DNA from: Acidimicrobiia bacterium
GTDB lineage: Bacteria > Actinomycetota > Acidimicrobiia > Spongiisociales > ZC4RG35
Length of the DNA stretch: 64,000 nucleotides
Direction of reading: 5' to 3'
Assembly: GCA_965215185.1 (NCBI GenBank)
Contig: OZ244034.1
Span: forward strand, 2,976,001-3,040,000
A program made the translations under genes and the position numbers. Position 1 is the stretch's first letter. The number at the start of each line of letters is the position of its first letter. Below are positions 34,757 to 39,180 of this stretch, in pieces. The notes beneath the pieces are model-generated. The model had not been told where the DNA came from and did no database searches. It saw nothing but the letters and a program-made list of their open reading frames with translations.

Positions 34757-36203
34757 GGTTCAAGGGGTCGTTGCAACACTGCCTTGTTTGAGGGAGTGTA
34801 GGTATTCGTTGAGGGCCTCGGCTGGAGTCCTCCAGCCGAGGGTTTTGCGGGGTCGGCTGTTGAGTGCTGCAGCGACAGCGTCGAGGTCGTTGCGTGAGTG
34901 TCTGTGGAGGTCGGTGCCTTTGGGGAAGTATTGGCGGAGCAGACCGTTGGTGTTCTCGTTGGTTCCACGCTGCCATGGACTCTGCGGGTCGCAGAAGTAG
35001 ATGTCGAGGTTGGCCTCTGTGCGGAGTTGAGCATGCTGAGCCATTTCGACTCCTTGGTCCCAGGTCAACGACTTCCGGAGCTGTTGGGGCAGGGTGATGA
35101 TCGACGCAGCGATAGCGTCTCGTACGGCTTGGGCGCCATGGCCGGCGAGAGGGGGCCCGTTGTGGACCCGTTGCTGTTTTCGGTGGCCTGGCATGGGTGG
35201 GAGATGCAACAGCATCGTGAACCGGGTGGTGCGCTCAACCAGCGTCCCGATCGCGGAACTCCGAAGTCCCAGGATCAGGTCACCTTCCCAGTGTCCTGGC
35301 ACTGCCCGGTCGTCGGCCTCGGCGGGGCGTTGGCTGATCATGATCTCGGGGCTGACGAAGGTGCGGCGCCGCTGCCGGGTCCGTGCCCGCGGGACCCGCA
35401 AAGCTCGCCCGGTTCGCAGACACGCCACAAGCTCCCGTTTTAGCGCGCCTCGGCCTTGCACATAGGCCGCCTGGTAGATCGCCTCGTGAGAGATCCTCAT
35501 GGACTCATTATCAGGGAAATCGATCCGGAGCCGCCTCGAGATCTGCTCAGGACTCCACGACGTTGCCCACCGCCGATCAGCTCGCCTTCCGTGACGGCGA
35601 CCCGCCCAGCGCACCTGGGGCCCTGGCACCAGCTCACCATCCGGGCGGGCGATCTGACCACCCAAACGATCCTGCACATACTCACGAAGCTCGTCGTTGG
35701 CGGCCAGCTTCGCGACCTTCGGGCGGCTGGCACGCCGCTCCGCGTGCCACTGCGCTGTCGTTGCCCGATAAACCACACCACGACTACGAGTTGCGGCGTT
35801 GCGCCGCAACTCCCGCGAAATCGTCGACGCGCAACGACCAAGGCGACGACCGATCTCCCGCACCCCCACACCCTGCGCACAGAAGATAGCGATCTCTTCC
35901 CGTTCGGTAAACGACAGATAACGGCCCGACACCGAACCCAGAGAGATCGGCGGCATCCCACCAGCCTGGCGGAACCATCTAGACCCAACCGCCGGTGACA
36001 CCCCCGCCCCGGCAGCAGCGTCCTCGCTCGAGACACCCCCAGCGATCGCTTCCCAGAACCGGACCCGATCCTCACGCCGCGCTTTCGACGGCCGACCAGG
36101 CGACCACAACTGACCCCGCATCACACGAACCGCCTCCCGACGCTTCACAACACTCACCGCAAACCTCCTTCATCACCAAGTGTTGCGACCACCAATTGAA
36201 TCC
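34757..36203 (-). mobile_element. IS30 family element, apparently intact (transposase 34760-36157)
   Basis: YLSFTEREEI, STISRELRRN, WSPEQIS, GHWEGDLI, LTWDQG.EM, PWQRGTNENTNGLLRQYFPK; IRs GGTTCAAGGGGTCGTTGCAACACT / GGATTCAATTGGTGGTCGCAACACT. Confidence 0.93.
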
Positions 36204-36206
36204 GCC

Positions 36207-36542
36207 CAATATCTGTCCATTCGCTACACGAACCGGCTCACCGAAGCCGGCATCGAACCATCAGTCGGCTCGGTTGGGGATTCCTACGACAACGCCCTCG
36301 CCGAATCCGTCATCGGCCTATACAAGACAGAACTCATCCACAAACGCGCTCCGTGGAAGGACCTCGACCAAGTCGAGTACGCCACCCTCGAATACGTCGA
36401 CTGGTTCAACCACCGCCGGCTCCTCGAACCCATCGGAGACATCCCACCAGCAGAGAAGGAGGCCAACTACCATCGTGAGCAGAACCGAGTCCAGCTAGCT
36501 GGACTCAAGTAAAACACTCTCCGGGAAACCCGGTACGGTTCA
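36207..36542 (+). mobile_element. IS3 family 3' half, copy 2, inverted relative to copy 1
   Basis: Near-identical reverse complement of 34417-34752 (336 bp); ends CCGGGAAACCCGGTACGGTTCA. Confidence 0.88.
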
Positions 36543-36712
36543 CATCTCGAAGGTAACCAACGGACCCACCGAAGCCCTCAACAACCTCATAAAGCGGATC
36601 AAACGCATCGCGTTCGGGTTACCCAACTTCGCGAACTACCGAATCCGCGCCCTTCTCTACGCCGGGAAACCCAACTGGGACCTATTGGCCACCGTCACTC
36701 CCCACTGAAATC
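36543..36712 (+). mobile_element. ISL3 family 3' fragment; its terminal repeat is split by IS110 and resumes at ~38191-38199
   Basis: TNGPTEALNNLIKRIKRIAFG..NFANYRIRALLYAGKPNW; end CCCACTGAAATC | (C)GATGAGCC resembles an ISL3 GAGCC terminus. Confidence 0.82.
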
Positions 36713-36728
36713 CACTCATACTTAGAAG

Positions 36729-36910
36729 GTTCCTGGGCTGGGACGGGTCTGACCCAACTGAAATCTGGCCTTGTGCCTTTTCATCGATCTGTCGGCCTGT
36801 TCCCGGCCTGGGGCGTAACCCCCTGACCCGGGGCGGATGTGACCTTATAGGAGCTTTGATCTTCCTCCACCGTGAGTGGCCTGTCCACCGCTTGCCGGGT
36901 CCGGGGATCG
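36729..36910 (+). ncRNA. IS110 bridge RNA candidate with target- and donor-binding loops
   Basis: Stem 36732-36753/36791-36812 encloses ACTGAAATC and TCATCGAT (match the flanks); stem 36820-36843/36883-36907 encloses ATAGGAGC and TGAGTGG (match the element ends). Confidence 0.85.
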
Positions 36911-36944
36911 GAAATGATTCTATCCCGCAGAGGAGGAAGGTGTC

Positions 36945-38175
36945 ATGGGAGAAGATGGTCGGGTTGTGTTCGGTGGGGTTGATACCCATCGTGATACCCA
37001 TGTTGCGGCGGTGGTTGATGGCGCCGGTCGGGTCCTGGGAACGGCACCGTTCGGGGCTGATCCGGTCGGATATGAGCAGATGACCAGGTGGTTCGGAACC
37101 CACGGGCACCTGCTCCGGGTAGGAGTGGAGGGCACCGGCAGCTACGGCGCCGGCCTAGCCCGCTATCTGATGGCGGCGGGCATCGAGGTGGTAGAAGTGA
37201 ACCGGCCGAACCGGCAGTTACGCCGCCAGAGGGGCGGCAAGACCGACAGTGTCGACGCCGAGGCGGCAGCTCGGGCAGCGGCCTCGGGGCAAGCTACCGC
37301 AGTTCCCAAATCTGGTGACGGCCCGGTTGAGTGCATACGGATGTTGTTGGTGGCCCGCCGCTCGGCTACCAAGGCCCGCACCCAGGCCGCTAACCAGATC
37401 CATTCTGTGGCCGTTACCGCACCTGAACAGGTAAAACGCCAGCTCAGAGGTCTCAAGCTCAAGGCCCGGGTTCGGGTCTGTGCCCGCTGGCGTCCCGGCC
37501 AAGCACAGACCACTGCGGCGTACGCGAAGATGGCTCTACGCTACCTGGCCCGCCGATACCAAGCCCTCGACACAGAAATCGCAGAACTCAAGATCGAGAT
37601 CCGTCGCCTCTGCGCCGAGGCTAACCCGGCTCTGTTAGCCGCCAAAGGTGTGGGCCCTGACACCGCTGCCGCCCTGCTAGTCGCAGCCGGCGACAACCCC
37701 CAGCGGATGAAATCGGAACGGTCCTTCGCGGCGCTGTGTGGCGCCAGCCCCGTCCAGGCATCATCGGGACAGACCATCCGGCATCGTCTCAACCGGGGAG
37801 GTAACCGCCAAGCCAACAACGCGCTCTGGCCGATGCGCTACCACCCGGATACGCCACGACGCAGCCACCAACCAATACGTGGCACGGCGCCAGGGGGAAG
37901 GAAAGAACCGAAAAGAGATCATCCGCTGCCTCAAGCGGCACATCGCCCCACAGGTCTACCGACTGCTGACCAACCCGCCACCAACCCCGAACTGCGCCCG
38001 GCTCCGCCGCCGACGTCAACACGCCAACATCACCGTCACCCAGGCCGCCCAACAGCTCGGAACCCACCCCAGCCGCATCTCAGCACTCGAACGCGGCCGA
38101 GACCACAACCACCAACTCGCCAGCCGATACCAGACCTGGCTCCTAACCCACGAACCGGCCCCATCACCGACTTGA
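36945..38175 (+). CDS. IS110 DEDD recombinase with C-terminal XRE-like HTH; frameshift near 37830
   Basis: GGVDTHRDTH, GVEGTGSYG, KTDSVDA, GVGPDTAA, PVQASSG, RLNRGGNRQAN; continues in another frame as EIIRCLKRHIA..RLRRRRQHANITVTQAAQQLGTHPSRISALERG. Confidence 0.88.
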
Positions 38176-38321
38176 CAACCATAGGAGCATCGATGAGCCG
38201 GTTTAGGGGGGGTGCTCTGCCCCGGGAGATCCGCATCCTCGAAGAACTCGGCATGATCAACCCCCAACCCGCCCCCCTAACCAGCGGGAAGTCCGACGCT
38301 TCTACCAAGCAGACCACACCC

Positions 38322-38470
38322 TGAGGTTGACCCGCTTCGGTGGACGCTCTAAGACTTGGGATTGTTCCCAGATAGGAGTGTTCAGAGAATGCCGAAGACG
38401 AGACGGCCGTATCCGGCGGAGTTCCGAGCGGAGATGGTTCGCGTGGTCAGGGCGGCTCGTAGCCCTTTCC
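38322..38470 (+). mobile_element. IS3 family left end with truncated orfA
   Basis: TGAGGTTGACCCGCTTCGGTGGAC terminus; MPKTRRPYPAEFRAEMVRVVRA from 38389. Confidence 0.65.
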
Positions 38471-39180
38471 GAAGGACCGGGATAGGTGCCACACGCTTAC
38501 GTTGCCGATGTGGCGACCAGGCACTTCGGTACGGCGGACCGAGAAGTCGTACACTCGGGCCTCGCGCCAGGACTGCATGCTCCGTTCGACGAAGCTGGCT
38601 GCCCGGGCTCTGGTATAGGGGGCGGTCGCCCAAGGTAGGAACCGGGCCAGTTCGGTCTTGGAAGCGTTGACGGCCCGGTAAAGGGCGTCGATGTCCTGTC
38701 TCCTGAAGGGGCGTAGTACGGACCGTTCCGTGTGGCGGTCGATGGGCGGCAGGGTTCCCGCGATGATCTGCTTATGTCCGGTCGTTCCTGGATGGGCAAA
38801 GCTGCATCGAGGAGGTTCGGCTCCGGAGACTAGCTAGGCGCAATCCTGCTGAACCGAATGGAACGGGTGGGGGACTCTCTCGATGACTACACCACCCGTA
38901 CCCTGGTCCTGCACGGCACCGAGGACAGCCCCGTCCCCCTTCTGCCAGTGGGCCACCGGGCGCACTTCCGTCCGTAGATCGGAAGGTCTATCGAAGTATC
39001 AAGTATGATTCCATTGACGAACCCCTTGGAGTAGCGCTGCTCAATGACATCATCACCCGGGTACGTGAACAGGTCAGAAGTGGGCTCCAGAAGACAGAAT
39101 CACCAGAGCCTTGGGGTCATGGGGTACGATAAGAAAACTAGTAGGATAGATTGGATAACAGGAGATAAGGAGGACTGCGT

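Follow-up and report, generated by a model that had tools for sequence, protein, structure and literature searches.

A probable two-loop bridge RNA in the left end of an IS110-group insertion sequence from an Acidimicrobiia sponge symbiont

The element, its insertion site and its recombinase

This study analyzed a window of 64,000 nucleotides, the whole stretch of DNA presented above, from a genome that forms one contig of 3.12 Mb with 60.7% G+C. The window contains an insertion sequence of the IS110 group, reading ACTCAT...GGAGCAT on the forward strand at 36714-38190 and flanked on each side by one common C. The features of the element and its insertion site are as follows.

36513-36712, + strand: 3' remnant of an ISL3 transposase gene with the ISL3 right end (PF01610, DDE_Tnp_ISL3, E 6.9e-10 on 36523-36705)
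36713, + strand: left copy of the core C; the same base stands at 38191, and the boundary is ambiguous by one base
36714-38190, + strand: IS110-group insertion sequence, its ends kept in paralogs and orthologs
36729-36910, + strand: probable bridge RNA with approximate ends, drawn from the fold, the pair counts and a match of covariance model R1 over 36722-36919 at 199 bits
36945-38175, + strand: recombinase gene; one extra base near 37835 breaks the open reading frame (ORF), and the intact form has 409 aa
37996-38103, + strand: C-terminal helix-turn-helix (HTH_31/HTH_3), XRE-type, in the frame downstream of the frameshift (residues 351-386 of the relative L093)
38181-38191, + strand: right end, ATAGGAGC-AT plus the core C (38191), conserved in paralogs and orthologs
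38192-38199, + strand: final 8 bp of the ISL3 end, GATGAGCC; flanks diverge beyond GATGAGCC or GAAGAGCC

The non-coding left end comprises 232 nt (36713-36944), and the right end extends 16 nt past the stop codon (38176-38191). Such a long non-coding left end and short right end without terminal inverted repeats are characteristic of the IS110 family, as is site-specific insertion with duplication limited to the core, which was seen when empty and occupied sites of three specificities were compared. The left flank consists of the final 60 codons of the ISL3 transposase; the left target half, ACTGAAATC at 36704-36712, overlaps the ISL3 stop codon TGA (36706-36708), and the right target half, GATGA at 38192-38196, lies within GATGAGCC. 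The IS110 element is inserted 8 bp from the ISL3 tip and splits the ISL3 terminal repeat, and four further ISL3 ends are present in the genome. The surroundings resemble an insertion sequence graveyard, containing an IS30-like gene on the minus strand (34760-36157), then a C-terminal piece of an IS3-family integrase (36180-36512) and then the ISL3 remnant. The ORF at 38356-38670, which encodes the peptide MPKTRRPYPAEFRAEMV, presumably resembles an IS3-family orfA. The nearest named relatives of the element were found in MAGs labelled Candidatus Spongiisociaceae or Acidimicrobiia and in sponge bins; given these Acidimicrobiia sponge-symbiont MAGs, the term actinobacterial, used in a preceding sequence-only reading, is appropriate in a wide sense only.

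The IS110-group identity proposed in that reading was borne out by protein homology. The N-terminal DEDD RuvC-like domain (PF01548, DEDD_Tnp_IS110) was matched over residues 11-155 with an E of 5.4e-25, and Transposase_20 (PF02371) with an E of 1.4e-15; the frameshift cuts the latter at profile position 69 of 87, and this domain is complete in the intact relative L093. The L093 protein scored 200.2 bits, against a cut-off of 140, with the NCBIfam model NF033542 ('IS110 family RNA-guided transposase') over residues 10-343 of 409. The solved homologues were the recombinases of ISCro4 (9t56; E 2.4e-13) and IS621 (8wt6; E 1.5e-10). The SSG motif of the recombinase aligns with the ESG motif of ISCro4, and we take its serine to be the catalytic one, after S241 of IS621. 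The helix-turn-helix tail lies outside the NF033542 model and is absent from the solved IS621 (328 aa) and ISCro4 (341 aa) chains. The IS110 of Streptomyces coelicolor and other long actinobacterial IS110 transposases (approximately 400 aa) belong to the same phylum and are of similar protein length.

The frameshift became apparent when the gene was compared with intact copies of 409 aa from a related genome. In the genome itself, three paralogs have retained ORFs of 404-409 aa; one of these, a sibling 90 kb away (genome position 3102724) with a 409-aa ORF, has guides identical to those of the window. The frameshift-repaired enzyme that had been envisaged for recombination assays is unnecessary, since natural intact copies exist. 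With a frameshifted recombinase and broken insertion sequences all around it, the copy in the window can probably no longer move on its own; its bridge RNA looks intact.

Guide segments and fold of the left-end RNA

The predicted parts of the RNA are the following.

36735-36809, + strand: target-binding stem-loop, with an upper stem of approximately 36735-36753 paired with 36791-36809
36757-36765, + strand: left target guide, ACUGAAAUC, in left-flank sense, 9/9 to 36704-36712 and covarying with flanks
36781-36785 (whole segment 36781-36788), + strand: right target guide, UCAUC; the reverse complement equals 38189-38196
36820-36907, + strand: donor-binding stem-loop, with a stem of 36820-36843 paired with 36883-36907
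36847-36854, + strand: left donor guide, AUAGGAGC, equal to 38181-38188; TAGGAGC is kept in the loop and in right ends
36873-36877 (whole segment 36873-36879), + strand: right donor guide, UGAGU; the reverse complement equals 36712-36718

The four guide matches reported in the sequence-only reading were all exact at their coordinates when read from the sequence. ACTGAAATC at 36757-36765 is identical to the left flank at 36704-36712, and ATAGGAGC at 36847-36854 to the right end at 38181-38188. The other two segments are reverse complements, TCATCGAT (36781-36788) of ATCGATGA at the right junction (38189-38196) and TGAGTGG (36873-36879) of CCACTCA at the left end (36712-36718). The small hairpin GGC-CTTGT-GCC was located at 36767-36777. 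The tails of both right guides are handshake-like: for the target guide, G 36786 stands opposite the core C and AU (36787-36788) opposite the last two bases of the donor, and for the donor guide, G 36878 faces the core C and G 36879 the final left-flank base. When 36729-36910 was subjected to 5000 dinucleotide-preserving shuffles, matches of the observed length arose by chance in 34 shuffles for the left flank, 69 for the right flank, 3 for the right end and 133 for the left end; two or more matches occurred together in 5 shuffles and all four in none. In this copy, parts of the two target guides can pair with each other, and the minimum free energy (MFE) fold joins UGAAA at 36759-36763 with UUUCA at 36779-36783.

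Folding of 36725-36915 yielded -83.0 kcal/mol (z = -2.17), a value reached by 5 of 200 shuffles, and reproduced both of the stems previously proposed at their coordinates. By contrast, when the whole left end (36713-36944) was folded (z = -1.57; 10 of 200 shuffles), stem 1 was kept, but the second half paired otherwise and stem 2 was missing. Thermodynamics by itself is weak support, and the structure rests on covariation because the z-scores of the MFE folds are modest (-1.6 to -2.2).

Across 51 distinct relatives, 92.1% of the cells were paired, and compensatory changes on both sides were found in 36 of 43 pairs. This pairing level was reached by none of 500 shuffles, and slid controls were 34-57% paired; the pair counts were taken on a model-fitted alignment, and kinship among the sequences inflates the shuffle tests. 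In helix 2, the target stem, 98.9% of the cells were paired, with both-side changes in 10 of 13 pairs, and in helices 5-8, the donor stem, 82-96% were paired, with both-side changes in 14 of 16. The two stem-loops with large internal loops that characterize bridge RNAs are conserved by covariation in this family, with robust support for the upper loop 1 stem and for the loop 2 stems. Stem 1 is ambiguous in its lower part, which may form either the long stem of the sequence-only reading or a 5' hairpin together with a middle hairpin. Single-sequence folds produced the long lower stem in 25 of 40 distinct relatives and the 5' hairpin in 0 of 40; the consensus fold of eight paralogs split the lower stem into two small hairpins, and the pair counts on the model-fitted alignment support the two forms equally. 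A search of 36000-39000 against Rfam 15 returned no match at E up to 1.

Covariation with insertion sites and the crossover core

Approximately a dozen diverged left-end copies, with 73-91% identity, are present in the same genome. Covariance model R1, built from eight paralogs, detected the RNA in 22 of 61 related genomes, this one included. It was present in 14 of the 16 other genomes of the genus and in 17 of 36 in the family; among the order's other families, 4 of 24 genomes were positive. The positive genomes include the unpublished G039. In G061, a named MAG of 5 Mb, 35 matches were found, and among its 16 copies with the guides of the window, 15 lie at the same ISL3-end site.

The layout of loop 1 is fixed, comprising GGUCUGACYC, 10 nt, UGG, the mini-hairpin, GCCUU, approximately 6 nt and GAUCUGUCGG. 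The 80 rows available for guide counting were reduced to 46 left and 32 right pairs, rows with an unreadable left end, anchor or right end being excluded, as were 11 of the 58 covariance-model rows (below 100 bits and with different anchors). For the nested loci L063:1501 and L076, the outer right end was used, the inner one being that of the inserted sibling; this choice favours a match.

The results revealed that the left guide matched its own flank in at least 8 of 9 positions in 31 of the 46 distinct cognate pairs, compared with 8 of 1942 non-cognate pairs, and in all nine positions in 15 of 46 compared with 0 of 1942; the remaining 15 of the 46 left pairs scored 7 or less. The right guide matched fully (5/5) in 13 of 32 cognate and 3 of 954 non-cognate pairs, and in at least four positions in 22 of 32 and 9 of 954, respectively. 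The left guides, of which 31 are different, form 15 clusters, each having a member that matches its own flank in at least 8 of 9 positions. The first loop covaries with both the left and the right target flanks, in the bottom-strand/top-strand pattern of a bridge RNA, and the covariation anticipated in the sequence-only reading was confirmed on 46 distinct relatives for the left guide and 32 for the right. That reading had named flanks varying without corresponding changes in loop 1 as the case against it; the reverse was found, loop 1 following the flanks in all 15 clusters. The right target guide had been given as 8 nt long, of which five are specific and covary with the right flanks, whereas the following G-A-U is invariant.

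Loop 2 behaves otherwise. Its motifs TAGGAGC and GAGUG are conserved, as are the element ends ...TAGGAGCATC and ACTCAT..., and the second loop matches the right and left ends of the element, both nearly invariant. In an ACTCC subfamily, the left end and the guide change together, with ACTCA/ACTCC concordance in 36 of 37 elements.

The crossover core is a single C, as indicated by empty sites of three specificities. The empty site of the target in the window reads ACTGAAATC-C-GATGAGCC, that of the target of a paralog TATGAAACC-C-GGCAC and that of a third target GGAAAC-C-GAACT; a contig from an RNA library also shows an unoccupied target, ...ATCC followed by GAAGAGCC. Comparison of empty with occupied sites revealed that insertion adds ACTCAT...GGAGCAT and one C. 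Every right junction has ATC after TAGGAGC regardless of the target, and the left-junction bases before ACTCAT vary with the target. Of the two cores suggested earlier, ATC or a single C, the latter is supported by the empty sites, whereas the former is not, since AT belongs to the element. A core of ATC, or of TC with two donor Cs, was rejected: the right junction always shows one C and the empty site two. The donor has a T before the core C; in targets, that position holds A, C or T. The CT core dinucleotide of the IS621 clade is not found here, and the single-C core separates the element from that clade, not from bridge RNAs generally.

The bases adjoining the right guides fit the other DNA after strand exchange, as handshake guides do, at the level of sequence. 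The invariant G-A-U of loop 1 fits the core C and the last two bases of the donor (donor ATC). The loop 2 dinucleotide corresponds to the last two bases of the target in 18 of 37 elements; the shuffle mean was 6.6, and 0 of 5000 shuffles reached 18. In the published description of IS621, the right guides pair after top-strand exchange with the incoming core and two preceding bases (PMC11208158).

The position of the left target guide within the RNA is the same in every element, and the crossover C is either the ninth paired base of the guide or the next base. Among 25 matches of at least 8/9, the C is included in 16, and the match stops one base earlier in 9, the window included; both of these main registers were confirmed by empty sites. 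In the second register, the next RNA base, U, could wobble-pair with the G opposite the core. A third register was found in a subfamily in which CGG replaces UGG. The left donor guide ends two bases before the core. A variable left-guide register is not predicted by a rigid IS621-like geometry.

Three other explanations of these matches were weighed. A single old insertion might have spread as a passenger of ISL3 transposition or duplication, in which case the copy counts would overstate the targeting evidence for the specificity of the window. We consider this unlikely. The 15 matching G061 copies and both copies in the own genome do lie at the identical ISL3-end position, with flanks that differ past the 8-bp ISL3 tip, as expected of moved composites. 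However, the inserted elements differ by up to approximately 19-22% (81% nucleotide identity between the window and its sibling, and 78-99% protein identity), whereas the ISL3 left flanks of the window and the sibling are at least 93% alike; the insertion also splits the ISL3 terminal repeat 8 bp from its tip, and unoccupied ISL3 ends exist. The covariation result is independent of the ISL3-end copies because these collapse to few distinct pairs and 14 other guide clusters match too.

The motifs might instead be DNA-level binding sites for a protein, or part of a cis-regulatory leader of the transposase mRNA, rather than RNA guides. The near invariance of the loop 2 motifs and of the element ends would suit sub-terminal sites, and only one donor position covaries. 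Covariation of loop 1 with flanking DNA outside the element cannot be explained by such a model, though, and the compensatory changes in the stems are typical of structured RNA; homologous recombinases have moreover been solved in complex with such RNAs (PMC11208158). This explanation is therefore highly improbable. Chance matching in a GC-rich non-coding region can practically be dismissed, as single matches of 7-9 nt occurred in 0.06-2.7% of shuffles, but all four in 0 of 5000, and the same arrangement recurs with different guides in 15 clusters.

Mechanism, known systems and sibling elements

A candidate promoter for the RNA is divided between the two ends of the element.

36717-36722, + strand: CATACT, -10 half of the putative circular-junction promoter, with a 17-nt spacer from TTGACA
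38172-38177, + strand: TTGACA, -35 half of the putative junction promoter, overlapping the stop codon at 38173-38175

On joined ends, TTGACA-17-CATACT or CATAAT was found in 36 of 53 elements. The IS621 promoter is described as split between the right and left ends (PMC11208160), and by analogy the junction sequence may function as a promoter here. No sigma-70-like promoter on the + strand was found upstream of the RNA in the integrated copy. A promoter-like site on the minus strand, from 36946 to 36917 (ATGACA, 18 nt, TAGAAT; 10/12), points antisense into the bridge RNA region; it was the only match in 2 kb, and shuffles gave 0.3. RNA libraries of two studies yielded contigs that cover 36694-36917, although contigs do not prove transcription. 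Four RNA-library runs gave no contig over 36920-37135, which is evidence neither of a 3' end nor of absence.

Taken together, the findings strongly suggest that 36714-38190 is an IS110-group element whose left end encodes a bridge RNA of approximately 180 nt, with two loops that read the insertion site and the element's own ends for recombination at one C; we hold this reading to be very probable. Its basis in hand consists of the sequence matches, the conserved fold, the guide-flank covariation, the one-base core and the protein homology. From IS621, ISCro4 and ISEc21 we infer that the RNA is expressed and bound, and likewise the chemistry and the promoter. In the proposed mechanism, nine bases on the 5' side of loop 1, the target-binding loop, would stand in the sense of the left target, and five on the 3' side would be antisense to the right target; G-A-U would fit the core C and the last two bases of the donor once strands have been exchanged. 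Loop 2, the donor-binding loop, would read the joined ends, AUAGGAGC corresponding to the right end and UGAGU to the left end, and the two bases after UGAGU would fit the core and the last target base. A tetramer of the DEDD/serine recombinase would hold both DNAs on the bridge RNA and exchange strands at the common C. A circular element would thereby be inserted without duplication beyond the core C, and the joined ends of the circle would form the TTGACA-17-CATACT promoter driving the bridge RNA.

Bridge RNAs of IS110 elements were reported in 2024; in that survey, 85.7% of the IS110s in the catalogue were predicted by covariance models to have one, and covariation was reported for thousands of pairs of target and RNA (PMC11208160). 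The element resembles IS621 of E. coli, as described in PMC11208160 and PMC11208158, in having the RNA in its left end, upstream of the DEDD/Ser recombinase, and two stem-loops with internal loops, the first variable and the second conserved. Also as described for IS621, the 5' side of each loop follows the left half-site in sense (8-9 nt) and 4-7 nt of its 3' side form the antisense of the right half-site, the handshake bases adjoin the right guides, and the putative promoter is split over the right and left ends. Unlike IS621, for which a CT core is described, the element has a core of one invariant C (donor TC, target NC); its left target guide includes the core or stops before it, and its left donor guide is two bases short. 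The recombinase also differs in its 409 aa and extra C-terminal helix-turn-helix, the solved IS621 chain having 328 aa, and the host is an Acidimicrobiia sponge symbiont rather than E. coli.

The best solved homologue is ISCro4 (PDB 9t56), for which two aligned stretches span both catalytic domains; the similarity is distant, and the comparison was made at the protein level alone. Unlike the recombinase of the element, the 341-aa ISCro4 chain has no helix-turn-helix tail. A preprint describes the use of the ISCro4 bridge recombinase for human genome rearrangement (10.1101/2025.05.14.653916). The seekRNA of ISEc21, as described in PMC11187229, likewise derives from an upstream non-coding region, needed there in cis or in trans, and ISEc21 shares site-specific insertion with no duplication of target bases and a circle junction that generates a promoter; the element, the host and the targets differ, and this likeness is one of published description. 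A limited literature search found no paper linking IS110 elements to Acidimicrobiia or sponge symbionts, and relatives of the element may already appear in the ortholog tables of PMC11208160.

Several related copies do not conform to their own guides. The loci L043, L078 and L092 occupy sites not matched by their own loop. L092 (G061:C1:3664903-3665101) carries the guides of the window, but its site fits the loop of a co-resident L141-type element in 8 of 9 left and 4 of 5 right positions; the L141 type has the left guide AAAGAACAC, the right guide AACGC and the same donor ends as L092. Insertion of L092 in trans by the RNA of its sibling is plausible because the sibling shares its donor ends. 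RNA supplied in trans is reported to work for IS621 (PMC11208160) and for ISEc11 and ISEc21 (PMC11187229), and a preprint reports 'half-match' off-target insertion (10.64898/2026.08.31.748434). The genome of L043 (G011) contains a truncated sibling with the left guide of the window and another right guide, which gives a half match only, and the site of L078 agrees with its sibling L089 in only 7 of 9 and 3 of 5 positions. The possibility that L043 is a chimera of the type in the window and the c979 type was rejected, the copy being closer to c979 over most of its length.

Some further observations concern the range of targets. Unoccupied ISL3 ends fit the guides of the window, exactly at genome 2519242-2519259 or with one mismatch (also at 2507889), and these exact or near-exact targets stay empty although an intact sibling carries the same guides. 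A subfamily with the left guide UUGACAAAC and a right guide fitting ATAG targets the right ends of siblings, between TTGACA and ATAGGAGC; its copy at C1:1097484 (minus strand) is nested in the right end of a sibling element from 1098933 (minus strand), and it is also found at locus L063, at 2341231 and 909139, and at L108 and L148. In G061, L141-L143, L146 and L149 form a distant subfamily with the same ends and loop anchors and approximately 55 extra 5' bases in the left end, which are probably an added stem-loop. L048, L067, L073 and L082 (G015 and G007) represent a further specificity and are inserted inside the coding region of ISL3 transposase genes, with the flank ...GGCATCAACAACCTCATCC. 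The IS110 elements examined here repeatedly target other insertion sequences.

We tentatively suggest that co-resident paralogs form a guild with common donor ends and loops and at least 15 target loops, in which the RNA of any member may place the DNA of any member, copies with a dead recombinase, like that in the window, included; we regard this as possible rather than probable. Separately, and with equal reserve, the guide-to-core register may not be fixed, three registers having been seen and two confirmed by empty sites. The first suggestion, if true, would explain elements at sites unmatched by their own loop and make sense of a subfamily that targets the -35 box in the right ends of siblings; the second, if true, would loosen the design rule taken from IS621.

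The element is a new representative, in a broken copy, of an already known RNA-guided recombination system. A specialist would not be surprised by it; what is of use is the natural series of target loops, whose targets and empty sites are known. Bridge recombinases are under development as programmable tools for DNA insertion, excision and inversion, and orthologues with other core requirements widen the range of addressable sites; the family described here requires nothing but a C at the crossover. Its members amount to a reprogramming series made by nature, in which one donor loop is combined with at least 15 target loops, each beside its own target and three with empty sites. The series is a ready source of data on the rules that guides follow, on how far mismatches are tolerated and on where the core stands relative to the guide. 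The extra helix-turn-helix domain and what looks like cross-guiding among siblings raise further questions that can be tested. For the genome itself, the finding explains the piling up of IS110 copies at ISL3 tips and inside each other.
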